From assembly GCA_049315725.1 (NCBI GenBank), contig JBMOJP010000005.1:1-51188 (forward strand): DNA of 51,188 nucleotides, written 5' to 3'. Shown one piece after another: positions 24,175 to 40,301 of the stretch. The position numbers and the translations under genes were made by a program. The stretch is from Chthoniobacterales bacterium. GTDB taxonomy: Bacteria > Verrucomicrobiota > Verrucomicrobiia > Chthoniobacterales > JACTMZ01. The number at the start of each line of letters is the position of its first letter. Within the stretch, counting starts at the first letter, position 1. The notes below the pieces were generated by a model. The model did no database searches. It had not been told where the DNA came from and was given only the letters and a program-made list of their open reading frames with translations.

Positions 24175-24247
24175 TGGAGGTAAGGGGAGTCGAACCCCTG
24201 ACCTTCTCATTGCGAACGAGACGCTCTACCAACTGAGCTATACCCCC
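24175..24247 (-). tRNA. tRNA-Ala (anticodon CGC)
   Basis: GGGGGTATAGCTCAGTTGGTAGAGCGTCTCGTTCGCAATGAGAAGGTCAGGGGTTCGACTCCCCTTACCTCCA: full cloverleaf, G3:U70 Ala identity pair, CCA not encoded. Confidence 0.97.
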
Positions 24248-24603: not shown

Positions 24604-24679
24604 TTCAAGGTAGCCCTGTGGGCAGAGCAGAGGGCTGGAAATCCTCGTGGCGGGGGTTCGATTCCCTCTCTGGCGACCT
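24604..24679 (+). pseudogene. Decayed tRNA (tRNA-Phe-like scaffold, anticodon reads GGA)
   Basis: TA-GCCC-TGTGGGCA-GAGC-A-GAGGG-CTGGAAA-TCCTC-GTGGC-GGGGG-TTCGATT-CCCTC-TCTGGCG-A-CCT has exact tRNA spacing but broken acceptor and D stems. Confidence 0.7.
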
Positions 24680-24960: not shown

Positions 24961-24977
24961 TAGGCACGGAACTTGCT
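24961..24977 (+). promoter_or_regulatory. Sigma-54 (-24/-12) promoter of the REC-glutaminase gene
   Basis: TAGGCACGGAACTTGCT: GG-N10-GC, near the TGGCACG-N4-TTGC consensus; about 100 nt upstream of ATG 25079. Confidence 0.7.
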
Positions 24978-25078
24978 CAATTGAGCTTGCCGAACAAGCC
25001 TAAACACAAGGCAAAGACCCTCCATCCGCGCGACTTGGACTCGCTGGTATTGAGGCAAATCTCTCCTCACGACCAATC

Positions 25079-26443
25079 ATGCATCCAAAAATTCTCACCG
25101 TTGACGACAGCAAGACGATCCGGATGTTACTGGCGCGCCTCTTTGGGAAGTATCAATGCCAAGTCTTCGAGGCGGCTGATGGCTCCGAGGGGCTCTCCGT
25201 GGCTGTGCGGGAGAAGCCGGACCTCATTATCATCGACTACAACATGCCTGTCATGGACGGCATTACCATGCTGCGGAAGTTGCGGGAGGAAGCGGAGTTT
25301 AAAAAGACCGAGGTGATTATGCTCACTGGTGACACCAGCACACAGATCTTGGCCAGCGTGGCCCGTCTCGGGGTGCGTGACTGCGTGACCAAGCCATTCA
25401 ATGAGGATGAGTTGGTGGCCAAGGCGTTGCGCGTGGTAAAGTTAGAGCCTCGTAATGTGGAAAAAAGCCACGATACGTCCACGATTCAATCGTTGCTGGA
25501 AAAACTCCATGCACGCTACAAGGGTGTCAACGATGGCGAGTTGGCCAGCTACATCCCGGAATTGACCAAGGCCAACCCGGACCACTTCGGCATCTGTCTG
25601 GCCTCAGTGGAAGGCACCATGTTCCAAGCGGGCGACTGCAATGTGGAGTTCACGATCCAGTCCGTCTCCAAAGCGCTGGTCTACGCCCGAGCGCTCACCA
25701 TGCACGGCCGGGACAAGGTCACCCAGCGCGTCGGAATCGAACCGAGCGGCGATACCTTCAACTCCATCAATCTCGACAAGCAAAACCGAGCCTTCAACCC
25801 CATGGTCAATGCCGGCGCGATCACCGCGACCGGGTTGATCGAGGGTGCCTCGCTCGCGGAGCGGCGGGAAAACCTCCTCAAGACTTTCAGCAAGGCTGCG
25901 GGGAGGGAGCTCAAGATTGACGAGCGCGTCTACAAGTCCGAGAGCCTGACAGGGCACCGCAACCGGGCCCTGGTCTGGTTGCTGACGAATTTCGGGCAGG
26001 TCGACGAGGCAGCGACCTTGGACACGCTTGAACTCTACTACATGCAGTGCTCGATCCTGGTGACCGCGCGCGATCTGGCCATTATGGGCGCCACCCTGGC
26101 CAACACGGGGATGAATCCGTTCACCGGCGAGAGTATCTTCGATGTGCACTGCGTGCAGGACACGCTTTCCGTCATGTTCACTTGCGGTATGTATGACTAT
26201 TCGGGCGAATGGGCCTTCCGCGTCGGCATTCCCGCCAAGAGCGGAGTCGGCGGTGGCATCATGGGAGTGGTCAACCGTCAGCTGGGCATCGGCATCTATT
26301 CGCCGCCGCTGGACGACCGCGGGAACAGCGTGCGGGGCATTTTGGCCTGCAGTCATCTTTCGGAGGAGCTAGGCCTGCACGCCTTCAACTTCATGAACGA
26401 CGGGTCCACCTACCTTCGCTCCATGATGGTCGGTGACTCATGA
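25079..26443 (+). CDS. glsA: Response-regulator receiver domain fused to glutaminase (GlsA family)
   Basis: aa 1-122 REC (VDD, D53-YNMP, T83, KPF); aa about 135-454 glutaminase: YIPELTK, FTIQSVSK (catalytic SxxK), EPSG..FN, NPMVNAGAI, CGMYDYSG, PAKSGVGG, SPPLD.RGNS. Confidence 0.93.
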   Translation: MHPKILTVDDSKTIRMLLARLFGKYQCQVFEAADGSEGLSVAVREKPDLIIIDYNMPVMDGITMLRKLREEAEFKKTEVIMLTGDTSTQILASVARLGVRDCVTKPFNEDELVAKALRVVKLEPRNVEKSHDTSTIQSLLEKLHARYKGVNDGELASYIPELTKANPDHFGICLASVEGTMFQAGDCNVEFTIQSVSKALVYARALTMHGRDKVTQRVGIEPSGDTFNSINLDKQNRAFNPMVNAGAITATGLIEGASLAERRENLLKTFSKAAGRELKIDERVYKSESLTGHRNRALVWLLTNFGQVDEAATLDTLELYYMQCSILVTARDLAIMGATLANTGMNPFTGESIFDVHCVQDTLSVMFTCGMYDYSGEWAFRVGIPAKSGVGGGIMGVVNRQLGIGIYSPPLDDRGNSVRGILACSHLSEELGLHAFNFMNDGSTYLRSMMVGDS

Positions 26444-26586
26444 TTTGAGGCTGCCTCGAGGGGGAGATCGGTCATGACATGGTCCAACCGGAATGGTTGA
26501 GGTCTCGCCCAAGGGTCCGACCCGCGCAAGCCTGCGGCCACCCTCAACTCGATCTTTGCCGACCGGCCTAATCAGGCTGCGCCGCC

Positions 26587-27825
26587 CTAGGCGAAGTGGA
26601 TTCGGATCAGCGAAAAATCATCGTCGAGCGGACCGGGGCCGTTGAACCCGTGCAGCCAATCGAGGAGGCGGCGGAAAACATCGGGCGCGGTGGCGTTGGC
26701 CTGCATGAAGTTTCTGAACTCCGCGAACCCGAGCATCTTGCCGTCCGGCTTGGCCACCTCGTAAGTGCCGTCGCACAAGACGAAGAGACGCGAACCGGGA
26801 GGAATCTCGCGCGAGGCTGAGGCGTAGGGGAGGTTCTCCAGGTAGCCGATCATCAGGCCCGACTTGTTGAGGTCCTCGATCTCGCCGCCCGGCAGAACGA
26901 GAAGCGCGGGGGGATGGCCACCGCTGGCGTGGCGCAACATGCGGGTCGGGGTGTGGTAGACGCCATACCAGATGGTGAAATACATGTCGTTGTTCCGCTC
27001 CATGGGGAAGGCGGAGTTGAGGGCCTGAAGCACTGCGCCGGGATCACGAAAATCGACGCCGGGCAACGCGCCGGACCTGATCGCATTGATCGCGCTGACC
27101 GAGAGCAGGGCTGCGCCCACCCCGTGACCGCAGACGTCGAGCAGATAGATGGCGAAATGCTCGTCATCGATCCAGTGGTAGCCGAAGGAGTCGCCGGCCA
27201 GTTCGGTGGACGGCTCGTAGTGCCAGTCGATCGCATACGGCTTTTGCGTGGGCTCCGGCAGGATGCTGCGGACATACATGGCCGCATCATCGAGTTCCTT
27301 GGCCAGGCGCTTCTGCGTCCGCTCGAGCAATTCCTTTTCCTCCTGCAGCTGGATGAAGCGCAGGCGATCAAGGTCGCGCAGCCGTTTCTTTTCGATGGAG
27401 GAGGTGACTCTTGCGCGCAGTAGCGTCGGGTTGAAAGGCTTCGGCAGGTAATCCTCGGCGCCGGCCTCGATGCACTGCACCGCATTTTCGAGTTGTTCGG
27501 CCCCGGAAACAACGATGACGGGAAGACCGCTCAGCTCCGGACTCGATTTGATGGTCTGCAGCACCTCCATGCCGTTCATCTCCGGCATCTCCATGTCGAG
27601 CAACATCAGGTCGAAGGACTTCTCCTTGATCAAGCCCACCGCCTGGCGCCCGTCGGCCGCCTCGGTGATCTTTTTGAACCCCAGCTCATGCAGTGATCTG
27701 ATCAAAATCATCCGCATCGTCCGGCTGTCATCGACGACGAGCACCTCCGATTCCTCGAGGGGCTTGATGGTGAGTTCAGCTAGCGACGAGGAAATCGGCA
27801 TTGTTGTTTCTTGTTGATTACTCAT
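26587..27825 (-). CDS. Receiver-PP2C/SpoIIE serine phosphatase (RsbU-like)
   Basis: REC (VDDSRTMR, LDMEMP, KPF), coiled coil, then LAGDSFG, DVCGHGVGAAL, CDG and DDDFSL PP2C motifs. Confidence 0.92.
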   Translation of the reverse strand: MSNQQETTMPISSSLAELTIKPLEESEVLVVDDSRTMRMILIRSLHELGFKKITEAADGRQAVGLIKEKSFDLMLLDMEMPEMNGMEVLQTIKSSPELSGLPVIVVSGAEQLENAVQCIEAGAEDYLPKPFNPTLLRARVTSSIEKKRLRDLDRLRFIQLQEEKELLERTQKRLAKELDDAAMYVRSILPEPTQKPYAIDWHYEPSTELAGDSFGYHWIDDEHFAIYLLDVCGHGVGAALLSVSAINAIRSGALPGVDFRDPGAVLQALNSAFPMERNNDMYFTIWYGVYHTPTRMLRHASGGHPPALLVLPGGEIEDLNKSGLMIGYLENLPYASASREIPPGSRLFVLCDGTYEVAKPDGKMLGFAEFRNFMQANATAPDVFRRLLDWLHGFNGPGPLDDDFSLIRIHFA

Positions 27826-27842
27826 GGTGTGTTCGCCGTGAT

Positions 27843-28247
27843 CTATGGCGTCGGGTCGTCAGTGGCCGCTCGGGGCATGAGCGGGAGGATTTTGTTGATT
27901 TTCCCCAGGAGCGCTTGCTCCTCGAAGGGCTTCACGATGTAGTCCCGTGCTCCCAGACGCGCAACGGCGGAGATGATCGCGCGGCCCGACTCGGCGGTGA
28001 GCATGATGACCGGCGTCGCTTTGAGGGCCGCGTCCTCGCGCAGGCGGGAGAGCATGGTCAGCCCGTCCATCACCGGCATGTTGTAATCGAGGATGATGAG
28101 TTGCGGCCCTTTCTCCGCGGCGACGGCCAAGCCTTCCGCGCCGTTGGATGCCTCGCAGACCTCGACGGCAAAGGGTCGCAGGATGCGTGCAAGGAGCAGT
28201 CGTATCGTCTTGCTGTCATCGACGGTGAGAATGGTCGGATCGCTCAT
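27843..28247 (-). CDS. cheY: CheY-like single-domain response regulator
   Basis: 134 aa stand-alone REC (ILTVDDSKTIR, DYNMPVMDG, MLTAE, KPF) within the che operon; ATGA-coupled to cheX. Confidence 0.88.
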   Translation of the reverse strand: MSDPTILTVDDSKTIRLLLARILRPFAVEVCEASNGAEGLAVAAEKGPQLIILDYNMPVMDGLTMLSRLREDAALKATPVIMLTAESGRAIISAVARLGARDYIVKPFEEQALLGKINKILPLMPRAATDDPTP

Positions 28248-28729
28248 GGTGAGGGAAAAAGCGCGATGTCCAAGGTCAAAGGATGTCCCCCGCAAGTCCA
28301 GTCCGTTCGGCAATGCTCCCCCTGCGAAGCAAAGGCTTGCTCGGGTCGGTGCGAGCGCACCACCGGAGTCTGGAGAAGGCCGGCAAAACCCTGTTGCGAT
28401 AGTTCGGAGGACAAACGACCGGCGACCATATTGCAAAGCTCGGCGGCGACATCGGCCAGTTCCTCGGGGGACGATTCGCCGGGTTGTCGTCCGAAAAGTT
28501 GCGCGGCCGCCTCGGCTGCGAAATCCAAAGGCATGGCCAGCGCGAACACGCCGTGCCACGATGGCCCCGACCATGGCACGGAGAAGCAGAGTCTTTCATC
28601 TGCGGCGCCACTCGGTTCGGTGAGGGTGGAGCACGGGGATACGCTGCGGTTCAGTTGGGTGGAAAACACCGTCTCGAGCGAGCGGCCTGCGAGGGAGGGA
28701 AGGTTGTGAGGTTTGGTGGGCGCGCTCAT
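28244..28729 (-). CDS. cheX: CheX-like CheY-P phosphatase
   Basis: W(S)GPSWHG...LADVAAELCNMVAG (ExxN motif)...LQTPVV; between cheB and cheY. Confidence 0.8.
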   Translation of the reverse strand: MSAPTKPHNLPSLAGRSLETVFSTQLNRSVSPCSTLTEPSGAADERLCFSVPWSGPSWHGVFALAMPLDFAAEAAAQLFGRQPGESSPEELADVAAELCNMVAGRLSSELSQQGFAGLLQTPVVRSHRPEQAFASQGEHCRTDWTCGGHPLTLDIALFPSP

Positions 28730-29790
28730 TTTTTTGATCCATCGTGGAGGCATTGCATGATGGCGGCCGGCATGTTGGAGAGCGTGACCACCCGGTCGAC
28801 CGCGTTGAGTTTGATGGCCGCTTGGGGCATCCCGTAGACCACGCAGCTGTCCTCATGCTCAGCCAGCGTGCTGGCTCCTGCCATGTGGAGGGCGAGCATG
28901 CCGCGGGCCCCGTCGACCCCCATGCCGGTGAGCAGCACACCGGTGGCATGATTTCCGGCGCAGTCGGCACCGGAGCGGAAAAGCACATCGACGGCGGGAC
29001 GGCAGTGGTGGAGGGGGGGCGACTGAGTAAGGCGCACCTTGTAGCCCAGCCCTGAATGCTGCAGCGCAAGGTGGTAATCGCCGGGCGCGACGAGACAAAG
29101 CCCCGGACGCAACTGCTGCCCTTGCTGGGCCTCGCAGACATCGTAGGGACAGAGCTCATGCAAGCGCTCGGCCATGAGCCGGGAGAAGTTGGGCGGGATG
29201 TGCTGCACAATGACAATGGGCGGTAGGCCGGCCGGGAGTCGGGGAAGAATGCTGCGGAGCGCCTCCACTCCGCCAGTCGAGGCTCCGATGAGGAGAATTT
29301 GCCGGGAGGAAAATCCGCCGGGCGGCGGGCTGCTGAACCGGGATTTTGCCTCGGGCGTGCCAGCGGCGGACTGCGGCACACTCCGCTTGGCCCGCGCTGC
29401 GGCTTTGACATAAAAGGCGAGGCGGTGCGACAACTCGCCCAGGCCGAGTTTGCCGTCGGGCTTGGCCAGCACATCGACCGCGCCGAGGGCAAGTGCCTCC
29501 ATGGCCTTGGCGGAACCGGTTTGAGTCAGCGAGCTGATGACCACGACGGGGAGCGGATGGTGCTCCATGAGAATTTTCAGAAACGTGAGGCCGTCCATGC
29601 GCGGCATCTCCAAGTCCAGCGTGATGACGTCCGGCTGCAGCTCGAGAATTTTTTCCCGAGCCTCATAGGGGTCGGCAGCGAGCCCGCACACCTCGAGTCC
29701 GGGATCGCGGGAAATCGCATCGGAGATGGCGCGGCGGGCGAGAGCCGAATCGTCGACGACGAGCACGCGGATTTTTTTCCCGATGATCAT
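28726..29790 (-). CDS. cheB: Chemotaxis methylesterase CheB
   Basis: REC plus IGASTGG, VQHIP, RPAVDVLF, LTGMGVDGA, VVYGMP. Confidence 0.95.
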   Translation of the reverse strand: MIIGKKIRVLVVDDSALARRAISDAISRDPGLEVCGLAADPYEAREKILELQPDVITLDLEMPRMDGLTFLKILMEHHPLPVVVISSLTQTGSAKAMEALALGAVDVLAKPDGKLGLGELSHRLAFYVKAAARAKRSVPQSAAGTPEAKSRFSSPPPGGFSSRQILLIGASTGGVEALRSILPRLPAGLPPIVIVQHIPPNFSRLMAERLHELCPYDVCEAQQGQQLRPGLCLVAPGDYHLALQHSGLGYKVRLTQSPPLHHCRPAVDVLFRSGADCAGNHATGVLLTGMGVDGARGMLALHMAGASTLAEHEDSCVVYGMPQAAIKLNAVDRVVTLSNMPAAIMQCLHDGSKK

Positions 29791-30620
29791 GGCAGCCGAT
29801 AGACCCCTTGCTGCACAGGCTCGAGGCTGTGTTTGATGCCGAACAGGCTTTCCGAATGGCCGACGATCAAATAGCCGCCGGGCGCGAGTTGCCTGGTCAG
29901 GCGCTGGATGAGCGTGGCGCGCGAGGGCGGGTCGAAGTAGATCATCACATTGCGGCAAAAGATGACGTGCTGCGAGGCGGGCACGGGGCAGTGGGGTTGA
30001 AAAAGATTGAAGCGCTCGAAGGCGATGCGCTCGCGCAACTCCGCCTTCACCCGACAGGATCCCTCGCGTGCACCGACGCCACGTTGAAAATAGCGTTTGA
30101 GGAGATCGGGTGGAACGGCTGAGGCGGTGTCGCTGCGGTAAATACCTTCGCGGGCACGCGTGAGCATGCGTCGCGAAATATCCGTGGCATGAATCCGCCA
30201 ATCGACCGAGGGGAAGGCGCGCAGAAACTCGGCGAGGACGATCCCCAGGGTGTAAGGTTCCTCGCCGGAGGAGCAGGCGGCTGACCAGATGTGGAGCGTG
30301 GCGGGTGTGGTCCGCACGAGCTGGGGCAGGACTTGCCTGGCGAGGAAGTTGAAGTGCTCGGGCTCCCGGAAAAATTTCGTGTGGTTGGTCGAGATGAGGT
30401 CGACGAGGTGGTCGATCTCCTCTCCGCCCGCGGGTGAACGCAGCAAGTCGCAGTATTCCCGGTAAGAGGCGAACTGCAGCGTGCGCAGGCGGCTGCGCAG
30501 GCGGTTGGAGAGCAGGGCATGCTTGTCCTCTCCCAAGTTGATGCGGCTGTGCTCGTAGACCAACTCGACGACGTAGCGGTAGGCGTCCTCGTCAAGGACA
30601 GGCTCGGCAGACCATTCCAT
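29787..30620 (-). CDS. cheR: Chemotaxis methyltransferase CheR
   Basis: TNHTKFFRE, IWSAACSSGEEPYT, ATDIS, IFCRNVMIYFD, GHSESL. Confidence 0.95.
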   Translation of the reverse strand: MEWSAEPVLDEDAYRYVVELVYEHSRINLGEDKHALLSNRLRSRLRTLQFASYREYCDLLRSPAGGEEIDHLVDLISTNHTKFFREPEHFNFLARQVLPQLVRTTPATLHIWSAACSSGEEPYTLGIVLAEFLRAFPSVDWRIHATDISRRMLTRAREGIYRSDTASAVPPDLLKRYFQRGVGAREGSCRVKAELRERIAFERFNLFQPHCPVPASQHVIFCRNVMIYFDPPSRATLIQRLTRQLAPGGYLIVGHSESLFGIKHSLEPVQQGVYRLP

Positions 30621-30652
30621 ATGCACGTCAGGGAGTCCCCGAGGGCTGGGAC

Positions 30653-32206
30653 TTAAAAGTTGCGGAAGTCGCTGTCCTCATCCCGGACGTTGTTGTCCTC
30701 CGGCATGGGAATGCCCGAGCGGCGCGTTTCGCGTGAGGGAGCGGAGGATTCAATTCGGCCATGGCCTTGGTCCTCTTTTTTGCCTCCGACAAAGCGACGG
30801 AGTCTCGCCACCATCTCCTGCATGGAGCGCGCCTGGGCGGAAAGCTCCTCCGCCGCGCTGGCGGTCTCCTCGGCGCTGGCCGCGTTGCTCTGGGTGACTT
30901 TTTCCATCTGGGTCATCGCGCTGTTGATCTGCTCGATGCCCAGCGACTGTTCACGCGCGGCATTGGCAATGTCTCCCACGAGGGAATCTGTCGCGCTGAC
31001 CGATCCGGCGATTTTCTGCAGGGAGTCGGCGACCTTCGCCGAGTTGGTCGAGCCGGTGCGGCTGTTCTCGATGGCCATGGCGATCTTCGCAGCGGTTTCC
31101 TTGGCCGCGGCCGCGCTGCGTTGCGCCAGCGAGCGCACTTCGTCAGCCACCACGGCGAAACCCGCGCCCGCTTCCCCGGCCCGCGCGGCTTCCACCGCGG
31201 CGTTCAGGGCGAGGATGTTGGTCTGGAAGGCGATTTCGTCGATGTCTTTGACAATTTTCGCCACTTCCGCACTCGAAGAGTCGATCGACTTCATCGCATC
31301 GCTCATCTCTCCCATGTTGACCGCGCCGGCGCTGGCCGCCGCGTGCGATTCGCCCGCGAGGGTCTTGGCCTTCTGCGCGTTCTCCGACGTCGAGCGGATC
31401 ATGCTGGTCATCTCCTCGAGCGAGGCGCTGGTTTCCTCGACAGAGGAGGCTTGTTCGCTGGCGCCGGACGACAGACTCTGGCTGGCCACGGAGACCTGGC
31501 GGGAGGCAGCCGCAGTCTGCAGTGCCCCGTGGTCGAGGCTGTTGGCCAGGCCTCGCAGCAAGCGGTTGGTCGTGCCTGAGATGAGCCACGCGAGCAAAGC
31601 AGTCAGCACCAAAGCGCCGACGAGGGTCAACCGGACGGCACGCAGACCGTGCTCGGCGATCGACTTCGCTTTGCTGGCCTCGGTTTGTCCCAACCGCACA
31701 TTGAATTCCAAGTGGCTGTCGATGGCCTGAATGAGCTTTTCGTAGGCCGACAGGGTCTCCTCCTTCCGCCTCTGGGTCTCCGATGGCTGGTTAGCGGCGA
31801 TCGCAGTGATCAACCGGTCCCTCGCTTGCATGAAAGTCGCGTGGTTCTTTCTTATTTCACCCAACAACCGGCTGTCCTCGTCGCTGATCACCATGGGGTC
31901 ATACTTTTTCGCGCCCTCCTCGATCCGGCGGCTTTGCTCGTCCGTTTCTTTTTGTAGTTCCCTGACCCGATCCGCCGACATCTCTGCATCAATCTGTTCC
32001 ACCGCGATCATCGTGTTGCGTGCCGCATTGGAGATGTTGCCGAGAATAACCAGGCTGGGAACGACGTTATCATTCAGCTCGGTGATGTTTTGCATCAGTG
32101 CCTCCATTTGCTTGAGGGCGAAAATTCCCAGGCCTGCGGTGATGAGGAGTCCGATGGCGAAGCCGGCGATGATGCGGCGAGATATGGTCCAGAAGTTGGA
32201 TTTCAT
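30653..32206 (-). CDS. Methyl-accepting chemotaxis protein (4-helix-bundle-type sensor), C-terminal DFRNF pentapeptide
   Basis: Two TM helices, helical periplasmic domain, [37 protein letters not shown] tip. Confidence 0.95.
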
Positions 32207-32245
32207 AATATAATGGTGTGTTGGGTTGGGTCGTTGTTGGTGCGC

Positions 32246-32797
32246 TTAGTTTTGGAGGGTGGCTTGCCCGTTCGGGCGTCGGAAGGCGCCGGGGGGCACG
32301 ATGTCGGCTGCGGTGAGCGTGATGGTGCCCTCTTCCTGAAAGATTTTTTCCGTCTCCAGCAGCGTCTTGACCCCGCCTTGGATGGTGGCGACGCCGCGGA
32401 TGTAGCGGGTGGAGGAGGAGGCGCCGAAGTCCGGGCAAGGTTCGATCTGCGAGACCGCGAGTTGGACCACCTCCTCCACGGCATCGACGATGACGCCGAT
32501 GAGGGTGGGGCGACCGGAGGAGGAGCCGAGTTGCAGGACGATGATGCAGGCCCGCTCGCCATATTCAGCCGGGGCCATGGAGAATTTGGCACGCAGGTCG
32601 AGGACGGGAATGACCGTGCCGCGCAGATTGATGACCCCGCGCACGTGCGGGGGCATGTTGGGCACCGGGGTGATCTGGCAAAGGCGGATGATCTCGCGCA
32701 CGTGGAGCACAGGCAGTCCGTAAGACTCCGCTCCCAAGGTGAAGGTAAGATACCGCGCGGGCTTGGCCTCGGTCACGACCGTCGGAGAGTGGCTCAT
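32246..32797 (-). CDS. cheW: Chemotaxis coupling protein CheW (copy 2)
   Basis: YLTFTLG.E.YGL, VREII, ITPVP, GVINLRGTVIPVLDLR, IGVIVDAVEEV. Confidence 0.95.
   Translation of the reverse strand: MSHSPTVVTEAKPARYLTFTLGAESYGLPVLHVREIIRLCQITPVPNMPPHVRGVINLRGTVIPVLDLRAKFSMAPAEYGERACIIVLQLGSSSGRPTLIGVIVDAVEEVVQLAVSQIEPCPDFGASSSTRYIRGVATIQGGVKTLLETEKIFQEEGTITLTAADIVPPGAFRRPNGQATLQN
32300..32787. repeat. 488-bp direct repeat, copy A (cheW core)
   Basis: Identical to 34553-35040 except one base (32330 C versus 34583 T) by manual comparison. Confidence 0.95.
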
Positions 32798-32798
32798 G

Positions 32799-34448
32799 TT
32801 AGAAGTTCCGGAAGTCCGAGTCGTGCTCGTCGGCGGGCATGGGGATGGCGCGTGCCATCTGCCCGGATTTTGTTTTGGTCCGCGGTGCCTCAAGGGGGCG
32901 ATAATCCTGCCGTGTTGTCTCGTTTTGACCTCCGACCAGCCGTTGCAGTTGGCCGACGAGATCCTGCAGGGTCTCGGCTTGCGCCGAGAGTTCCTCGGCC
33001 GCACTCGCGCTTTCCTCGGCGCTGGAGGCGTTGCTTTGCGTAACCCCCTCCATCTGGGCGATGGCCGTATTGATCTGGCCGATCCCCTGGGATTGTTCGT
33101 GCGAAGCATTGGCGATATCGCCGACCAGATCATCCGTCGAGGTAATCTTCTCGGCGATTCGCTTGAGTGCCTCCTCGACGCGGGCCGAGCGCTCCATGCC
33201 ATGGCGGCAACTCTCCAGACCTTCGCGGCTGCTGGCCAGATCGGCATCGATCTTGATCGCGGTTTCCTTCGCCGCGGCCGCGCTGCGCTGCGCAAGAGAG
33301 CGCACTTCGTCGGCGACGACGGCAAACCCCGCGCCAGCCTCGCCAGCTCGGGCGGCTTCCACCGCGGCATTCAAGGCAAGGATGTTGGTCTGGAAAGCGA
33401 TTTCATCGATGTCCTTGACGATCTTGGACACTTCCGCGCTCGAGGAGGCGATGGCGTTCATTGCGCGATTCATCGACTGCATGGTCGTCGTCATTTCCGC
33501 CACGGCTTGCGAGCCTTGACCGGCGACCGAGCAGGATTCCAAAGCGAGAGTTTTGGCTTTCTGGGCATTATCCGCAGTCGCTCGGATCATGCTCGTCATT
33601 TCCTCGAGGGAGGCGCTGGTTTCTTCGACGGATGCGGCTTGCTCGCTGGCTGCGGAGGAGAGCGTCTGGCTCGCCATGGCGACCTGGCGCGCAGCCGACG
33701 AAGTCTGCACCGAGCCCTGCTGAAGATTGGCCGCGATGTCGCGCAGCACATGGTTGGTCGAGCGCGAGATGGCGATCGCGAGCCAGACAGCCAAGGCGAG
33801 TCCGACCACCAACGCGACGCAGACGAAGATGATGGCGTTCCGCGCGGTGACTCGCCCGTCCGCGCCATCCCGGTTGGCCTGGTCGATGCTTTCTCGGAGC
33901 ATCACATCAACCGCATCCATGTAGCGGTCGAAGTCCGGTTGGACGCTTTCCTGAATCATGGTGAAGAGAGCCTGCCTGCCCTGTTCGGCTCCACCCGCTG
34001 CATTCGGTGCAGGGGCTGTCTGCAGCATCTCATGATAGCGGTGCACTTTTTCGACAAACGCGTCAGAGCTGACGGTATAAGCTTTGCGCGCGAGAAGAGT
34101 AGCTTCGAGCAGCCTCCTCTCTTCAGGTTGCAGGTGAGCGTTTTCCTGTTTGGCCAGTAGCTCTGTCACCTTGGAGCGTTGGCTTTTTATGCCGGCCTCC
34201 AACCCGGGGATCGCTTCCGGCGGCGCCTCCATGAGTTGTATGACTCCCATGAGCGCGCCGCGGGCCGAGTTGGAGATATCTCCATAGGTGACAACCTGCG
34301 GGAGCGATTCGTCCACCACAGCATGCAGGTCTTGTCTCACGTGAAAAATCCGCTCCAGAGAGAAGCCGCCGACCAGCATGAGGATGGAGACGAGGATGAT
34401 AAATCCGGTGTTCACTCTCCTCGAGATAGTCCAGTGGTGCATATTCAT
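32799..34448 (-). CDS. Methyl-accepting chemotaxis protein (4-helix-bundle-type sensor), C-terminal DFRNF pentapeptide
   Basis: MNMHHWTISRR start after an AC-rich leader; two TM helices; conserved signalling tip; one extra heptad in each cytoplasmic arm. Confidence 0.95.
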   Translation of the reverse strand: MNMHHWTISRRVNTGFIILVSILMLVGGFSLERIFHVRQDLHAVVDESLPQVVTYGDISNSARGALMGVIQLMEAPPEAIPGLEAGIKSQRSKVTELLAKQENAHLQPEERRLLEATLLARKAYTVSSDAFVEKVHRYHEMLQTAPAPNAAGGAEQGRQALFTMIQESVQPDFDRYMDAVDVMLRESIDQANRDGADGRVTARNAIIFVCVALVVGLALAVWLAIAISRSTNHVLRDIAANLQQGSVQTSSAARQVAMASQTLSSAASEQAASVEETSASLEEMTSMIRATADNAQKAKTLALESCSVAGQGSQAVAEMTTTMQSMNRAMNAIASSSAEVSKIVKDIDEIAFQTNILALNAAVEAARAGEAGAGFAVVADEVRSLAQRSAAAAKETAIKIDADLASSREGLESCRHGMERSARVEEALKRIAEKITSTDDLVGDIANASHEQSQGIGQINTAIAQMEGVTQSNASSAEESASAAEELSAQAETLQDLVGQLQRLVGGQNETTRQDYRPLEAPRTKTKSGQMARAIPMPADEHDSDFRNF

Positions 34449-34507
34449 ATTTGTTTGATGATTGATCGTTGGTGGTGGTGATTGTGGGTCGGGTATTGTC
34501 GCGTGAA

Positions 34508-35068
34508 TCAGGAGCGGTCCCCGAGAATGCGCGGCTGAGCATCGGGCGGAATGATGTCGGCTGCGGTGAGCGTGATGGTGCCTTCTTCCTGAAAGATTTT
34601 TTCCGTCTCCAGCAGCGTCTTGACCCCGCCTTGGATGGTGGCGACGCCGCGGATGTAGCGGGTGGAGGAGGAGGCGCCGAAGTCCGGGCAAGGTTCGATC
34701 TGCGAGACCGCGAGTTGGACCACCTCCTCCACGGCATCGACGATGACGCCGATGAGGGTGGGGCGACCGGAGGAGGAGCCGAGTTGCAGGACGATGATGC
34801 AGGCCCGCTCGCCATATTCAGCCGGGGCCATGGAGAATTTGGCACGCAGGTCGAGGACGGGAATGACCGTGCCGCGCAGATTGATGACCCCGCGCACGTG
34901 CGGGGGCATGTTGGGCACCGGGGTGATCTGGCAAAGGCGGATGATCTCGCGCACGTGGAGCACAGGCAGTCCGTAAGACTCCGCTCCCAAGGTGAAGGTA
35001 AGATACCGCGCGGGCTTGGCCTCGGTCACGACCGTCGGAGGGTGGAACGTTGCGCGTGGGGTGTTCAC
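34508..35068 (-). CDS. cheW: Chemotaxis coupling protein CheW (copy 1)
   Basis: Same core as copy 2; GTG start overlaps cheA stop. Confidence 0.95.
   Translation of the reverse strand: MNTPRATFHPPTVVTEAKPARYLTFTLGAESYGLPVLHVREIIRLCQITPVPNMPPHVRGVINLRGTVIPVLDLRAKFSMAPAEYGERACIIVLQLGSSSGRPTLIGVIVDAVEEVVQLAVSQIEPCPDFGASSSTRYIRGVATIQGGVKTLLETEKIFQEEGTITLTAADIIPPDAQPRILGDRS
34553..35040. repeat. 488-bp direct repeat, copy B (cheW core)
   Basis: Offset 2253 bp from copy A; 487/488 identical. Confidence 0.95.
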
Positions 35069-37317
35069 GTGGCTTGGCGGGCGTGTTTGGCGGGCGTTCC
35101 ATGGCCGCGATCAGAAAAGCGCACGAGGCTGTCCACATCGAAGATTAGTCCGACTGAGCCGTCCCCCAGCACCGCCGCCCCGGCGAGCAAGTGCTGGTTT
35201 TGAAATGATTGGCCCAAGCTCTTGATGACGACTTCCTGCTTGCCGATCAGTTCGTCGACCAGGAGGGCCCGGCAGGAGTCGCCGGACTCGACGACGACCA
35301 TGATGCCATCCTCCGGTTTGACCGCGCGGCTCGGGCGTCCCAGATAGGGGCCCAGGCGCAACACGGGAGTCTGGCGACCGCGAACGCTGACCACTTCACC
35401 GTGCTCTTGAATGGTGGAGACCATGCCGGGCCTGGCCCGGAAGGATTCGCGCACCGAGAGGGTGGGGATGATGTAGCGGTCGTCGCCAACGCCGACGAGA
35501 AGGCCGTCGATGATGGCCAAAGTGAGAGGAAGAATAATGGTGAAGGTCGTGCCCTCGCCGGGAACCGAGTCGATTTCGATTTTGCCGCGCAGGTTTTCGA
35601 TGTTGCGGCGCACTACGTCCATCCCTACCCCGCGTCCGGAGAGATCGGTCACTTTTTCGGCGGTGGAAAATCCCGGCATAAAGATCATCTCGTAGATCCG
35701 GGACGTGTCCGGCTCCTCGTCCGGCCCGATGAGGCCTCGCTCGCGGGCCTTGGCCAGAATGCGGGAGGCGTCGAGGCCTCGGCCGTCGTCGCGGATACGG
35801 ATGCAGATGCCGCCTCGCTGGTGGGACGCGCTCAGCATGATGGTGCCGAGGGAAAGCTTACCTGCCGCCATGCGCTCGGCAGGGCCTTCGAGGCCGTGGT
35901 CCACCGAGTTCCGCACCATGTGGACGAGAGGGTCGGAGAGTTTTTCCACGATGTTGCGGTCTAGCTCAGTATCCTCTCCCTCGAGCAGAAGTTGGATTTG
36001 CTTCTGCTGCTGGGCAGCCAGATCGCGCACGAGGCGCGACATTTTTTGGAAGACGCCGCGCACCGGAACCATGCGCAGGGACATGGCGTTGCGCTGGAGT
36101 TCGGCGGTGGTCCGACTCAGCTGGCGCAGGCAGCGATCAAGGGTCCGGCTGGTCAGGTTTTGCACTTCCGGATTTTGCACCACCATCGATTGGGCGATCA
36201 CCAACTCGCCGACCAGGTCCACGAGGTGGTCGAGCTTGAGCGTGTCTAATTTGACGAAGCCCGAGGAGGTCTCGGTGGTGGCAGGACCGGCTGACGTCGC
36301 CGGGGCGGAGGCTGCTCTTTTCGCCAGGGGCTGCGCCGCGCGCGAAGCCAGAGTCTTGCTGGAGGGCTTTTCCTCCTCGGCCGGCGGATCGATCTCGGGC
36401 GGTTCTTCGGACTGGTCGGCAGGGGAAGGGGTGAAGACTGGAGAGGGTTCAGGCGCGGCGGGAGGCAACTCCCCGCGCAGGGCCGCCTGCAGCCTTTGCA
36501 TGAGGGCGCTCGTGGGGACGACGATGGGTGAACCGGCCCCAGTTCCGTTGAGCTGCGCGCCGATCTCGCGGGTGAAGTGCTTGAGGGCGTCGGCTCCGGA
36601 CAAAATAAGATCAACGATAGGCGAGCTAATCGAAAGTTCACCGCGCCGTGCCGCGGCCAGCAGGGATTCCAGATCATGGGCCACATCCTGCATCGCGCCG
36701 AGGTGCAGGAAGCCTGCCCCGCCTTTGAATGTGTGGAAGGCTCGGAAAATGGAGTTGATCGTGTCGGCGTCCGTCGGGTTGCCCTCGAGGACAATGAGTC
36801 CCTCCTCAATGCTCTGCAGCAGCTCAACCGATTCACCATGGAATTCGCGGAGGAGTTCGCTGTCATCCTGCAAATTCAGCGTGATCGACTTTTCCTCGAC
36901 GCCGGGTGCCGCTTGGATGGTGCTGGCTGCGACTGACGGCGCTGGCGCCGGCGGCGGTGCGGTGGTGGCAGCTTCTCCCCATAGGGCCGGGGCAGCAGGC
37001 ATCGCTTCTCCGTGCTGCCAAGCGTCAATGACCCGCAACATCCACGGATGCCATGCGTTGAGGTTGGCGATAGTTTCCTCGGAGAATTTTGCCGAACCGT
37101 CCAGAGTGAGATCAATCCACTGCCGTGCGTCGCGCAAACCCGCGCTCAGTTGCGCCGGATCATCGGGCTGCGCGGCATCCTCCATGTCCATGAGGCAGCG
37201 GTTGATGGCAAGCAGACCTGTGTCTTCCCCCGGAATGGCGAATGCCAACTCCTCGCTCAACTGTTCAAGCAACTGGCTGATTTTTTCCGTTTGGCTGGCG
37301 ATCGCGGTCCTCTCCAT
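35065..37317 (-). CDS. cheA: Chemotaxis histidine kinase CheA
   Basis: Hpt FRAFHTFKGGAGF, dimerisation KLDHLVDLVGELVI, HMVRNSVDHG, DDGRG, PGFSTAEKVTDLSGRGVGMDVV, PLTLAI, C-terminal CheW-like P5. Confidence 0.96.
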   Translation of the reverse strand: MERTAIASQTEKISQLLEQLSEELAFAIPGEDTGLLAINRCLMDMEDAAQPDDPAQLSAGLRDARQWIDLTLDGSAKFSEETIANLNAWHPWMLRVIDAWQHGEAMPAAPALWGEAATTAPPPAPAPSVAASTIQAAPGVEEKSITLNLQDDSELLREFHGESVELLQSIEEGLIVLEGNPTDADTINSIFRAFHTFKGGAGFLHLGAMQDVAHDLESLLAAARRGELSISSPIVDLILSGADALKHFTREIGAQLNGTGAGSPIVVPTSALMQRLQAALRGELPPAAPEPSPVFTPSPADQSEEPPEIDPPAEEEKPSSKTLASRAAQPLAKRAASAPATSAGPATTETSSGFVKLDTLKLDHLVDLVGELVIAQSMVVQNPEVQNLTSRTLDRCLRQLSRTTAELQRNAMSLRMVPVRGVFQKMSRLVRDLAAQQQKQIQLLLEGEDTELDRNIVEKLSDPLVHMVRNSVDHGLEGPAERMAAGKLSLGTIMLSASHQRGGICIRIRDDGRGLDASRILAKARERGLIGPDEEPDTSRIYEMIFMPGFSTAEKVTDLSGRGVGMDVVRRNIENLRGKIEIDSVPGEGTTFTIILPLTLAIIDGLLVGVGDDRYIIPTLSVRESFRARPGMVSTIQEHGEVVSVRGRQTPVLRLGPYLGRPSRAVKPEDGIMVVVESGDSCRALLVDELIGKQEVVIKSLGQSFQNQHLLAGAAVLGDGSVGLIFDVDSLVRFSDRGHGTPAKHARQAT

Positions 37318-37531
37318 GTTCAAAGCTAGTGCAACGTAGCGGTGGAGGTGTGCATGAGTCGACAGGAAAGGCATCCCCTGCCGGAACAGTCCCTCACGAG
37401 GTCGCCTAGAGGGGCGACTTTTCTCCGGGTGCACCCTCGCGCGTCATGGGCGCGACTTTGTCGCCGTTATGATGCTTGGGATCCAAGGGACTCGTCGGCG
37501 GGGCTTCCGGCTCGGCGGTCCTGCGGACCGT

Positions 37532-37921
37532 CTATCTCCCTTCGGTCGGTTCCATCTCCCCGCGCGCGAAGTAGGTCTGGTCGTAAATGTTCTGCTCCTG
37601 GCCCTCCAAGCTGGTGAGGATGAAACGCGGGTTGGCCCCCACCACCGCAGCAGCCGCCATCGTAGCCGTGAAATGCACCCGGTCGTCGGTGGCGTCGAAG
37701 TCCAAGATCAGCTCGCTCGGAGCTTCTTTGAAACTTTGGATGAACAACTCCAAGAGCACCTTCGACATGGCCAAAGCTGTCGGCCAATCGGCACGTTGCT
37801 CCAAGCGGCACAACGTCGAGCTGCCAGCCGGTTCCTCACTGCGCTCCACCGCACTCTGCCACAGCAGGTCCACTGCGGCACTTCGCTAATTTTTGCTCCC
37901 TGCGTGAAACATCCGGGTTAG
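37532..37921 (-). mobile_element. IS1380-family transposase remnant
   Basis: AGSSTLCRLE...ELILDFDATDDRVH joined to NPRFILTSL...Y.ARGEME (central DDE region deleted); candidate end CCCGGATGTTTCAC at 37917-37904 next to TTAG. Confidence 0.8.
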
Positions 37922-37995
37922 TTCAACGGGCCAGTCCAACTCACCCGACTCGTCGCCACGCCGGACATTTGGTCGCTTGGCCCCGGGAAACAGCA

Positions 37996-38022
37996 ACGCC
38001 GCCGGGGAGGCCCCGGCGGCGT
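37996..38022 (-). terminator. Intrinsic terminator-like hairpin after glnA
   Basis: ACGCCGCCGGGG-CCT-CCCCGGCGGCGT (12-bp stem) then TGCTGTTT, 25 nt after the GSIII stop. Confidence 0.7.
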
Positions 38023-38047
38023 GCGGTGAGGTGGTTTTGGGCCCGGC

Positions 38048-40201
38048 TTACTTGATGAAGAGCATCTCCTGGTAGGTCGGGAGCGGCCAGACTTCATCGG
38101 GCAGCAGGGTCTCCAGTTCGTCCACCGTGGTGCGCACTTTGAGCATGGCGGGCAGGACCTTGAAGGTCCAATCGCTGAGCTCATGGGCGGTGGAATGGAC
38201 GGCGTGGAGCATGGCGAGGTCGGTCTCGAGTTGCGCGACGAGCGCGGCCACCTTTTCCAGCGTGGCCGTGCTGGCGGTCACCTTGGCAGCCTTGAGCTTG
38301 GTCACGCCCTCGGCCAGGGCGGTGGCGTAGGCGGAGGCCACGGGGAAGATCTTGGTCTGCGCGACTTCGGCGACGAGCTTGGCCTCGACGTTGACGACTT
38401 TCTCGTATTGCTCGCAGAGGATGTGGTAGCGGCTCTTGAGCTCCGTCTCGGAGAGCACGCCATACTTCTCGAAAACCTCGATGATTTCCGGTCCCAGCAT
38501 GGCCGGAAGCGCATCGGCGGAGGTCTTGAGATTGGGCAGACCGCGCTCGGCCGCCTCGGCATGCCATTCTTCCGAATAGCCGTTGCCGTTGAAGATGACC
38601 TTGCCATGCTGGTCGATGATTTCCTTGAGGACCGACTGGATGGCCTTGTTCAGGTCGGGTGCGCCCTCGAGCTTGCCCGCCACGTAGTCAAGCGAGTCGG
38701 CCAGAATGGTGTTCATGGCGATGAGCGCGCCGGAGATGGACATGTTTGAACCGACGGCCCGGAACTCGAAGCGGTTGCCGGTGAAGGCAAAGGGCGAGGT
38801 GCGGTTGCGGTCGCCTGCATCCTTCGGCAGCTCGGGGAGAACATCCACGCCGATCTTGAGCGTGCCGCGCTGCTTCGACGTGGTGGCTCCGCCGGCCTTG
38901 ATCTGGTCGAAAACATCAGCGAGCTGGTCGCCGAGGTAGATCGAAATGATGGCCGGAGGCGCTTCGTTGGCGCCGAGGCGGTGGTCGTTTCCGGCTGAGG
39001 CGATGCTGGCGCGGAGGAGCGGGGCGAATTTGTCGACCGCGCGGATGACGGCGCCGGCGAAGACGAGGAACTGGGCGTTCTCGTGCGGCGTGTCGCCCGG
39101 ATCAAGGAGGTTGCCCTGCGTAGCATTGCCCAGCGACCAGTTGACGTGTTTGCCCGAGCCGTTGATGCCGGCGAAGGGCTTCTCGTGCAGCAGGCAGGCC
39201 AGGCCGTGACGGTCGGCCGTGCGCTTGAGGATCGTCATGACCAACTGCTGGTGGTCAGCGGCGAGGTTGGCCGACTCGAAGAGCGGGGCGATCTCGAACT
39301 GCCCCGGCGCGACCTCGTTGTGGCGGGTCTTGGACGGAATGCCGAGTTTGAAGAGTTCGCGATCCACCTCATACATGAAAGCCATGACCCGCTCGGGGAT
39401 GAGGCCGAAGTAATGGTCCTCGAACTCCTGGCCCTTGGGCGAAGATGCACCGAAAAGGGTGCGGCCGGCCGAGAGCAGGTCGGGGCGGGCGTAGAAGAAC
39501 ATCTTGTCGATGAGGAAGTATTCCTGCTCGGGACCGGCGGTCGCGCTGACGCGCGCAATATCCTTGTGGCCGAAAAGTTTCAGGATGCGGCGGGCCTGTT
39601 TGTCCAGGACCTGCATGGACTTGAGCAGCGGCGTCTTCGTGTCGAGCGCCTCGCCCGTCCAGGAAACAAACGAGGTCGGAATGCAAAGCGTGTTGCCGTT
39701 GGCGTTCTCTATGAGGTAGGCCGGGCTGGTCACGTCCCACGCGGTGTAACCGCGGGCGGAGTGGGTGGCGCGGATGCCGCCGGACGGGAATGAGGAGGCA
39801 TCAGGCTCGCCCTGAATGAGCGTCTTTCCCTTGAACTTGGAGATAGCCGAGCGACCACCGGCGGCGGGGTCGTAGAAGGAGTCGTGCTTCTCGGCGGTGA
39901 TGCCGGTGAGCGGGTAGAAAACGTGGGCAAAGTGGGTGGCACCGCGGCTGACCGCCCAATTCTTCATCGCTTCGGCCACCTCGTCGGCCACGCCCTCGGG
40001 CAATTTGCGACCTTCTTCGAGGGTCTCGATGATGGACTTGTAGGTGGCCGGCTTGAGCGTGTCCTTCATTGTGGCGAGGCTGAAGGTGTTCGCCCCGAAA
40101 ACTGTTTCTGGCGTTTCTTCGACAAAGTTGACCGAAGCATCCTGCGCTTTGCGGGTTGCGATGGCCACCACGGCGGCGGAGCGGGCTGACAGGTTACTCA
40201 T
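38048..40201 (-). CDS. glnA: Glutamine synthetase type III
   Basis: 717 aa; [92 protein letters not shown]. Confidence 0.96.
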
Positions 40202-40284
40202 TATGTGTGTGTGGGTTGGGTTGGTTGTTTTGCGAAGGCGCCATTGTGGGGATCGGGAACCGCCATCGCGAGAAAACAGTATAA

Positions 40285-40301
40285 AGCACAAATCATGCCA
40301 A
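40285..40301 (-). promoter_or_regulatory. Sigma-54 (-24/-12) promoter of glnA
   Basis: Minus strand TTGGCATGATTTGTGCT: GG-N10-GC, about 85 nt upstream of the GSIII ATG. Confidence 0.72.

Follow-up and report, generated by a model that had tools for sequence, protein, structure and literature searches.

The subject of this analysis is a 51,188-nucleotide stretch of high-GC DNA (hereafter the window) from a freshwater Chthoniobacterales bacterium of the phylum Verrucomicrobiota, in which a chemosensory (Che) gene cluster ends 143 bp from a convergent gene that joins a receiver domain (REC) of the CheY type to a glutaminase. In the reading that we favor, to which we assign a probability of about 0.55, the kinase CheA of this cluster transfers phosphate to D53 of the fused receiver and in this way controls the only intact glutaminase of the cell, whose expression is under the control of sigma-54. 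That CheA would phosphorylate the enzyme directly is what we infer, and the wiring of the Che pathway to the glutaminase is supported, though not proven, by the comparison with other genomes. The genome assembly from which the window was taken measures 2.67 Mb in 213 contigs and is 96.6% complete. In the following, G000 stands for the window's genome, C for its contigs, G for other genomes, L for loci or contigs, and P for proteins.

The receiver-glutaminase fusion protein

The fusion gene (positions 25079-26443, plus strand) encodes a protein of 454 amino acids that consists of a Response_reg domain (PF00072; residues 5-115, E-value 3e-27, 95.3 bits against a cut-off of 30.2) followed by a Glutaminase domain (PF04960; residues 153-436, E-value 3e-113, 378 bits). 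The latter covers 286 of the 286 profile positions and contains the motifs QSVSK (residues 194-198), YIPEL, NPMVNAG, GHRN, MYDYSG, and AKSGVGGG, which align to the 3AGD and human GLS chains. The roles of the catalytic Ser-x-x-Lys and of the other active-site motifs are those known from human GLS and YbaS. With the complete profile and all motifs present, the fused enzyme is an intact predicted glutaminase of the PF04960 type (free-glutamine amidohydrolases), as the original prediction for this DNA had stated. It is also the only intact glutaminase of the genome; a second match, located on contig C166, is a fragment with a stop. Since unfused relatives start near residue 125-130 of the fusion in the alignment, the join can be described as a receiver, a linker of about 12 residues, and a complete glutaminase. 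Both domains are conserved across five fusion variants (77-93% identity). In an AlphaFold2 model of the fusion (built from a 23-row alignment) the receiver is well folded and the glutaminase part is poor, with a mean predicted local distance difference test (pLDDT) score of 66, so that the packing of the two domains is not readable from the model. A search of the ESM Atlas returned generic receiver clusters alone, at 0.84.

Aligned with the CheY of the neighboring cluster, the fused receiver contains VDDS at residues 8-11 (D9 and D10), D53 within IIIDYN, T83, and K105. These residues correspond to the acid pocket, the phospho-acceptor Asp, the Thr, and the Lys of E. coli CheY (D12/D13, D57, T87, and K109, respectively). 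The fused receiver is 56% identical to the window's CheY (E-value 3e-50) versus 31% to the receiver of REC-PP2C, the serine phosphatase encoded at the end of the cluster, and of the Response_reg matches in the genome (13 above the Pfam cut-off, four of them in this region) no other is closer to it than CheY. With the CheYs that homologous clusters encode in a different family of this order, the fused receiver shares 64-68% identity, and its helix alpha-1 (SKTIRMLLARLF) is near-identical to that of CheYs and unlike that of REC-PP2C. Receiver trees were built twice, the re-run leaving out one wrong-frame row as well as P0123, P0156, P0176, and P0177, and only conclusions common to both trees are used. 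The six fusion receivers form one clade (support 100/99 in the first tree and 99 in the re-run), which is nested in a starred 30-row clade that holds 12 of the 15 cluster CheYs. As judged from sequence, the fused receiver belongs to the clade of the CheYs of this cluster type, which agrees with its earlier description as a CheY paralog. The same receiver type is also found in CheY-REC-cyclase, receiver-STAS, and CheX-receiver proteins.

This grouping bears on the question of which kinase serves the fusion. A classical histidine kinase, either one of the Ntr type or the PAS kinase encoded at window positions 18273-19808, might phosphorylate the fused receiver, which would then belong to nitrogen control and not to the Che pathway. 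The gene of that PAS-HisKA-HATPase kinase is an orphan (without an adjoining response regulator gene) and lies 5 kb from the fusion. A sigma-54 promoter and NtrC-family activators (described below) would fit this explanation, and so would the position of the G156 fusion behind amino-acid-type ATP-binding cassette (ABC) transporter genes and the lack of linkage between fusion and che genes in relatives. However, the fused receiver groups with the CheYs of Che clusters and not with other receivers, its helix alpha-1 is almost that of CheYs and differs from that of REC-PP2C, the fusion is confined to genomes with a Che cluster (three out of three), and the PAS kinase does not adjoin the fusion in other contexts. 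We regard control by a classical kinase as distinctly improbable.

Alternatively, the fused receiver could serve chiefly to shape Che signaling, as a phosphate sink or competitor, the glutaminase activity being independent of phosphorylation. CheY-like sinks are indeed known from other Che systems, for example in Sinorhizobium and Rhodobacter. A sink needs no attached enzyme of 320 residues, however, and the conservation of both domains across the five fusion variants also speaks against this role. Moreover, the finding that unfused glutaminases are linked to STAS and PP2C genes, presented below, points to control of the enzyme itself. Of the explanations considered here, the sink is the one to which we give the least credit, and its probability is very low.

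The expression of the fusion gene is presumably controlled by a sigma-54-type promoter (24962-24977, plus strand; AGGCACGGAACTTGCT) with the -24 GG and -12 GC elements. It is the window's only match with one mismatch to TGGCAC-N5-TTGCW, and its GGCAC/T-N-TTGCT sequence, unlike the diverging flanks, is conserved in L101 and L102. The site is absent in G156, where the gene lies 66 bp behind an upstream open reading frame (ORF). The genome encodes rpoN and two NtrC-family activators, both of which score below the NtrC equivalog cut-off.

The Che cluster and the signaling inventory of the genome

The cluster is encoded on the minus strand, and its genes were identified with Pfam, after which their starts were refined. 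It starts with cheA (35065-37317; Hpt, dimerization, HATPase, and CheW-like domains), followed by cheW1 (34508-35068; PF01584), the gene of the chemoreceptor MCP1 (32799-34448; 4HB sensor), cheW2 (32246-32797; PF01584), and the gene of the chemoreceptor MCP2 (30653-32206; PF00015 and PF12729, 4HB sensor). The genes of the methyltransferase CheR (29787-30626; PF01739 and PF03705), the receiver-containing methylesterase CheB (28726-29790; PF01339 and PF00072, start refined), the phosphatase CheX (28244-28753; PF13690, E-value 5e-11), and the single-domain receiver CheY (27843-28247) come next. The last gene encodes REC-PP2C, a SpoIIE-type serine phosphatase with its own receiver (26587-27825; PF00072 and PF07228, E-value 9.5e-41), whose orthologues (71-94% identical) likewise come last in the homologous clusters. 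A convergent spacer of 143 bp, read from the sequence (26444-26586), separates the stop of REC-PP2C at 26587 from that of the fusion at 26443; the Pfam assignments and these coordinates bear out the complete che operon next to a convergent receiver-glutaminase gene that the original prediction had described. The junction between the glutaminase and REC-PP2C genes is covered by a Logan DNA contig (25992-26632, 0 differences), and the duplicated cheW-mcp unit by a second DNA contig from a public run; the public runs that bridge the junction may include the sample source of the genome assembly. The enzymatic response regulators at the cluster are REC-PP2C inside it and the receiver-glutaminase 143 bp away.

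The cheW-mcp unit is duplicated (window 30653-35068). The two cheW genes are 99% identical over 300 nt, and the two chemoreceptors are 45% identical, MCP1 being longer by one heptad per arm of the signaling hairpin (two 7-residue gaps). Both chemoreceptors end in DSDFRNF, which we take to resemble the pentapeptide that tethers CheR and CheB. The cluster contains the sole CheA of the genome (one PF02895 match) and its only two chemoreceptors, and HisKA matches number only three in the genome. In an RNA library, near-identical contigs were found over cheY/PP2C, both MCP genes, cheA, and the nearby gene of a type III glutamine synthetase (GSIII). The depth of the same library is low on the fusion gene and zero at 37323-37923 and 29510-30110. 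These contigs are a weak hint that the Che cluster is transcribed in nature.

Among the window ORFs scanned with Pfam, several long ones of which have no Pfam match at all, no flagellar or pilus families were found, in line with what had been noted before. Profile searches for FliG_C and FHIPEP (FliG and FlhA) in the 96.6% complete draft genome found none either, and the controls matched. With a core of CheA, CheW, MCP, CheR, and CheB and with no FliG or FlhA found, the cluster looks like a non-flagellar system, that is, one of the alternative cellular function (ACF) type. As to the rest of the genome, the lack of motility genes thus holds for the flagellar families and not for pilus motors, because the genome contains two PilT/PilU genes, which score over the curated cut-off, and three of the PilB/GspE-like type.

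These pilus genes fit the idea that the output of the Che pathway lies elsewhere, namely in a type IV pilus addressed by the free CheY or in a partner switch by which REC-PP2C controls a sigma factor or another target. The glutaminase would then be a passenger of the same mobile island, its receiver being served by crosstalk or not at all. The last cluster gene is a REC-PP2C or REC-cyclase gene in 12 of the 12 related genomes examined, the fusion being optional, and STAS-like and RsbW-like genes, which such a partner switch could use, occur elsewhere in the genome (contigs C149 and C181). The window has neither a STAS antagonist gene nor a HATPase_c_2 kinase gene. The tRNA genes and the transposase remnant that border the island fit a passenger as well. 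A CheY-clade receiver that is fused to an enzyme is nevertheless hard to explain without signaling to that enzyme, and together with the comparative evidence of the next section this makes an output elsewhere unlikely in our view.

Related loci, distribution of the fusion, and borders of the island

The window's Che proteins were searched against 160 glutaminase loci, and che genes were found in nine of them, in three gene orders. Five loci (L004, L005, L006, L104, and L106) have an unfused glutaminase gene that converges, as in the window, with a cluster of the order REC-PP2C-CheY-CheX-CheB-CheR-MCP-CheW(-MCP-CheW)-CheA, the REC-PP2C and CheA proteins of which are 71-78% and 71-84% identical to those of the window, respectively. 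In L036, L063, and L175 the glutaminase is co-directional and located 2.6-4 kb upstream of cheA. Finally, the Terriglobia-labelled L016 (710-11505) contains one co-directional string that reads MCP-CheW-CheR-CheW-like-CheA-REC-REC-CheB-REC-PP2C-STAS-glutaminase-RsbW-like kinase, in which the stop of the STAS gene overlaps the start of the glutaminase gene. In a glutaminase tree of 35 rows (32 chosen loci, the window, and two proteins) the fusion clade is nested in a starred 16-row clade (support 99), of which 15 rows are receiver-fused, STAS-followed, or che-adjacent, and L016, L036, L063, and L175 make up a second, distant starred clade. That the linkage recurs in both of these clades and in three gene orders argues against the glutaminase being a mere passenger, and the same is true for the position of the L016 glutaminase between STAS and RsbW-like genes. 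Since no flagellar genes were found and the unfused glutaminases of relatives stand beside the same cluster, glutamine breakdown, not swimming, is probably what the pathway controls. The synteny with cheA, CheX, and SpoIIE-type genes for which a test had been proposed exists for unfused glutaminases in 9 of the 160 loci; for the fusion it does not extend to G220/L102, the upstream side of L101, or G156.

In L004 and L006, a Pfam-confirmed STAS gene lies about 65 bp behind the glutaminase gene and faces REC-PP2C, and by tblastn the STAS gene of this type was found with 98-100% identity in L004, L005, L006, and L106. A STAS-like gene is located within 700 bp 3' of the glutaminase in 10 of 135 informative loci, and one is also found 3' of the fused gene in G156 and of the unfused gene in G193. 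RsbW-like genes are present in 16 of the 160 glutaminase loci. These STAS, RsbW-like, and PP2C neighbors suggest a partner switch that acts on the glutaminase.

Some further observations were made on these loci. Glutaminase genes beside STAS, RsbW-like (HATPase_c_2), and PP2C genes were seen in several phyla (L009, L016, L028, L034, L036, L063, L082, and L175). The record label of L005 (Aliarcobacter) looks wrong, as its genome is grouped into one order with those of L004 and L006, both labelled Verrucomicrobia. Long glutaminases were considered as candidate glutaminase-STAS fusions and rejected, because eight out of eight examined (P0006, P0009, P0011, P0012, P0014, P0017, P0021, and P0060; 626-732 aa) are tandem double glutaminases with two PF04960 stretches. 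Their records are labelled as Planctomycetota, cyanobacteria, or Gemmatimonadales, or are unlabelled.

The fusion itself is rare. A protein search in a set of 5.8 billion clusters yielded 120 matches listed, four of which contain both domains (P0002, P0003, P0004, and P0007), and a query with the receiver only had the same four fusion proteins among the matches listed. Standalone glutaminases fill the listed matches and the visible fusions are close relatives; distant or independent fusions may exist. The receiver-glutaminase architecture for which a search had been suggested was hence found, yet in few proteins, with at least four protein clusters besides the window's own. Full-length fusion loci amount to 1 of 80 in genome contigs and 2 of 80 in metagenomes among the matches listed. 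Within the order, for which 301 genomes were tallied (including the unpublished G158 and G173, neither of which has a relevant match), the fusion occurs in three genomes (G000, G220, and G156). The cluster type (CheA-CheW-MCP(n)-CheR-CheB-CheX-CheY followed by REC-PP2C or REC-cyclase) occurs in 13 of the 301 genomes, and all three fusion carriers are among them.

The REC-cyclase form of the cluster deserves a short description. Homologous Che clusters in L098:1840-2982 (G220) and L182:10487-14864 (G164) end in a receiver-class III nucleotide cyclase, which in such clusters stands instead of, or besides, REC-PP2C. Behind the cyclase of G164 come a protein with a metallo-beta-lactamase fold and an ABC transporter that contains a cyclic-nucleotide-binding domain. 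The notion that the receiver-cyclase carries a CheY-type receiver alone was rejected, as the arrangement is either CheY-REC-cyclase (e.g., the metagenome protein P0122) or cheY plus the next gene.

Several findings weigh against a glutaminase gated by CheA. Firstly, the switch aromatic residue (Y106 in E. coli CheY, three positions before the conserved Lys) is replaced by Cys102 (RDCVTKPF) in six of six fusion receivers, versus Tyr in 15 of 15 cluster CheYs, so that the coupling differs from that of CheY. The sister group of the fused receiver varies as well: it is formed by the CheYs of genus g42 in the first tree (93/76) and dissolves into a polytomy in the re-run, and the approximately unbiased (AU) test gives p = 0.44 for the alternative. 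Secondly, convergent genes, such as the fusion gene and the Che cluster here, are not co-transcribed, and the pilus motor genes elsewhere in the genome leave room for a motility or pilus output of the free CheY.

Thirdly, the fusion gene adjoins che genes in this genome only. In G220/L102 it lies behind a tRNA-Gln gene, with at least 10 kb per side without che genes, and in L101 it is found together with its promoter behind the same tRNA-Gln and next to an aldehyde dehydrogenase gene, which is likewise the neighbor in G220/L102; at the matching site in G000 (end of contig C123) the fusion gene is absent. In G156 it follows branched-chain-type permease and ATPase genes of an ABC transporter, and the che cluster is on another contig. 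This G156 gene (L095:9813-11180) furthermore contains an in-frame TAA precisely at the linker, at a position occupied by Glu in P0004, its nearest relative. A recent nonsense mutation, an error of sequencing, or a split form could each account for the TAA; after it, no standard start codon occurs until residue 177. Fourthly, the co-occurrence of fusion and cluster represents two lineages and not three independent events, 10 cluster-bearing genomes of the 301 are without the fusion, and the homology of the window with the G082 cluster (88% nucleotide identity) begins at 26451, only 8 bp past the glutaminase stop. Lastly, the close glutaminase relatives L103, L007, and L192 show no che genes, and L004, L005, L006, and L106 are near-identical kin, so that the nine linked loci correspond to about six lineages.

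The genomes of L004-L006 fall into a single other order, in which 3 of 104 genomes have the arrangement, and the window cluster is nearer to that of G301-G303 of another order (CheA 71-84%, REC-PP2C 76-78%) than to that of the same-order genus g42 (CheA 65-66%). This sporadic occurrence and the closeness to a cluster of another order fit the idea that glutaminase and Che cluster were laterally transferred together, as a unit. The edge of the island on the glutaminase side, just upstream of the fusion gene, is marked by a tRNA-Ala gene (24175-24247, minus strand) and a tRNA-Ser gene (24604-24675, plus strand), both identified by ARAGORN and Rfam. In the Rfam scan of the window these two tRNAs were matched, and the spacers contained no RNA element. 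The opposite boundary, which lies outside the system, is the spacer of 730 bp between cheA and the GSIII gene (37318-38047). It contains a decayed transposase fragment, 160 nt of which are 81% identical to positions 35777-35936 of contig C29 of G000; the homologous ORF on C29 matches DDE_Tnp_1_4 (Pfam), and a Pfam scan of the window's own ORF in this spacer gave no match. The flanking tRNA genes and the decayed DDE transposase fragment likewise fit lateral transfer of the island. A 190-bp element that is present on C92 is also located 3' of the fusion gene in G220.

Beyond this spacer lies the gene of GSIII (38048-40201, minus strand; Pfam GSIII_N, Gln-synt_C, and C-terminal domain), after which lgt follows in the gene order from cheA. 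The original prediction had counted GSIII as part of the system and had assigned sigma-54 promoters to both enzyme genes. The promoter of the fusion gene (one mismatch, conserved) is retained. The sigma-54-like site of the GSIII gene (40285-40300; TGGCATGATTTGTGCT) has the GG-N10-GC spacing and two mismatches and is weak, because matches with two mismatches are rarer in the window than expected by chance (15 found, 24 expected from shuffles). In the loci that include the region upstream of cheA (L063, L036, L182, and L016), GSIII was not seen there, and a search for GSIII in G301-G305, performed without a positive control, found nothing. As GSIII is the only glutamine synthetase of the genome (sole PF00120 match), a transposase remnant lies in between, the neighborhood was not seen elsewhere, and the promoter-like site is no better than chance, the adjacency looks accidental, and GSIII probably stands outside the system.

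A candidate metabolic output of a chemosensory pathway

The pathway that we propose would start with two chemoreceptors of the 4HB type, which would control a single CheA. Phosphorylated CheA may then pass its phosphate to four receivers, namely those of CheB (for adaptation), the free CheY, REC-PP2C, and the glutaminase fusion (at Asp53). Phosphorylation of the last would alter the glutaminase activity in either direction, probably via the oligomeric state, and CheX would reset the receivers. The amount of enzyme would be set by the sigma-54 promoter and an NtrC-family activator. In relatives, an indirect route may operate, in which REC-PP2C would dephosphorylate the STAS protein encoded behind the unfused glutaminase, some loci adding an RsbW-like kinase. 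The fusion could thus be seen as a short-circuit of this REC-PP2C/STAS route.

Literature searches, whose coverage excludes most subscription journals, returned no description of a receiver-glutaminase fusion or of a link between Che proteins and a glutaminase, in accordance with the earlier remark that no described Che output of this kind was known, and no paper was found that pairs a glutaminase with partner switching or a STAS domain. Control of glutaminases by signals is known as such from the two-component system GlnK-GlnL, which controls glsA-glnT in Bacillus subtilis, and from the glutamine-dependent acid resistance of E. coli (YbaS/GadC). There, the glutaminase is paired with glutamine uptake, a feature that is reminiscent of the G156 fusion behind ABC transporter genes. 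In contrast to these examples of transcriptional or pH control, the switch described here is fused to the enzyme.

On the side of the Che systems, the Wsp pathway of Pseudomonas is a Che-like array with WspR, a receiver-diguanylate cyclase. Like Wsp and Che3-CrdA of Myxococcus (PMC3147164), the window combines a full CheA/CheW/MCP/CheR/CheB core with a non-flagellar response-regulator output. The putative output differs from both in that it is a hydrolase of central metabolism and not a second-messenger enzyme or a transcription factor, in that its gene is convergent and located outside the operon, and in that the window's CheA is without a fused receiver. A formal parallel is offered by CheB of the same cluster, in which a receiver phosphorylated by CheA (as proposed here for the fusion) is likewise N-terminal to a hydrolase and gates its activity. 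CheB, however, acts on glutamyl and glutaminyl residues of receptors and has another fold (PF01339), whereas the fusion has an enzyme of the PF04960 type and a receiver of the CheY type.

The possible indirect route has precedents too. Stage 1 and 2 F7 clusters of gamma-proteobacteria include STAS genes and a serine phosphatase, with unclear function (Ortega et al. 2020, PMC7184735). By gene content they resemble the window cluster in the combination of Che genes with a serine phosphatase. They differ in that cheD and Aer2-like receptors are part of their gene order, and no glutaminase is reported for them. The window phosphatase, unlike that of the F7 clusters, carries its own receiver and has no adjoining STAS gene. 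In the SiaABCD system of Pseudomonas aeruginosa, the PP2C phosphatase SiaA, the kinase SiaB, and the STAS protein SiaC control the enzyme SiaD (PMC9239204). This system is a precedent for a partner switch that is directed at an enzyme rather than at a sigma factor, and the gene order of L016 and L004-L006 suggests the same logic. It differs in that its target is a diguanylate cyclase and its input is not a Che array, and the contact between STAS protein and glutaminase proposed here would be one predicted from gene order.

A broader reading, which we put forward tentatively and to which we give somewhat less than an even chance, is that chemoreceptor arrays of several phyla have a glutaminase as dedicated output, mostly via receiver-PP2C, STAS, and RsbW-like proteins and, in a few freshwater Verrucomicrobia, via the CheY fusion. 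The non-motility Che pathways known so far have second-messenger enzymes, transcription factors, or pilus motors as their outputs, and it is the glutaminase output that would be newly added to them here. If true, this would define a class of "metabolic" Che pathways through which extracellular signals adjust the pools of glutamine, glutamate, and ammonium. An output in primary metabolism would mean that receptor arrays, which are endowed with adaptation and gain, can directly determine the flux through metabolism. The fusion may also serve as a Rosetta-stone clue to a wider and apparently undescribed link between glutaminases and STAS, PP2C, and RsbW-like proteins, a link by which partner switching would come to include a metabolic enzyme among its targets. 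Che clusters of unclear function with STAS and phosphatase genes would thereby gain a testable target.

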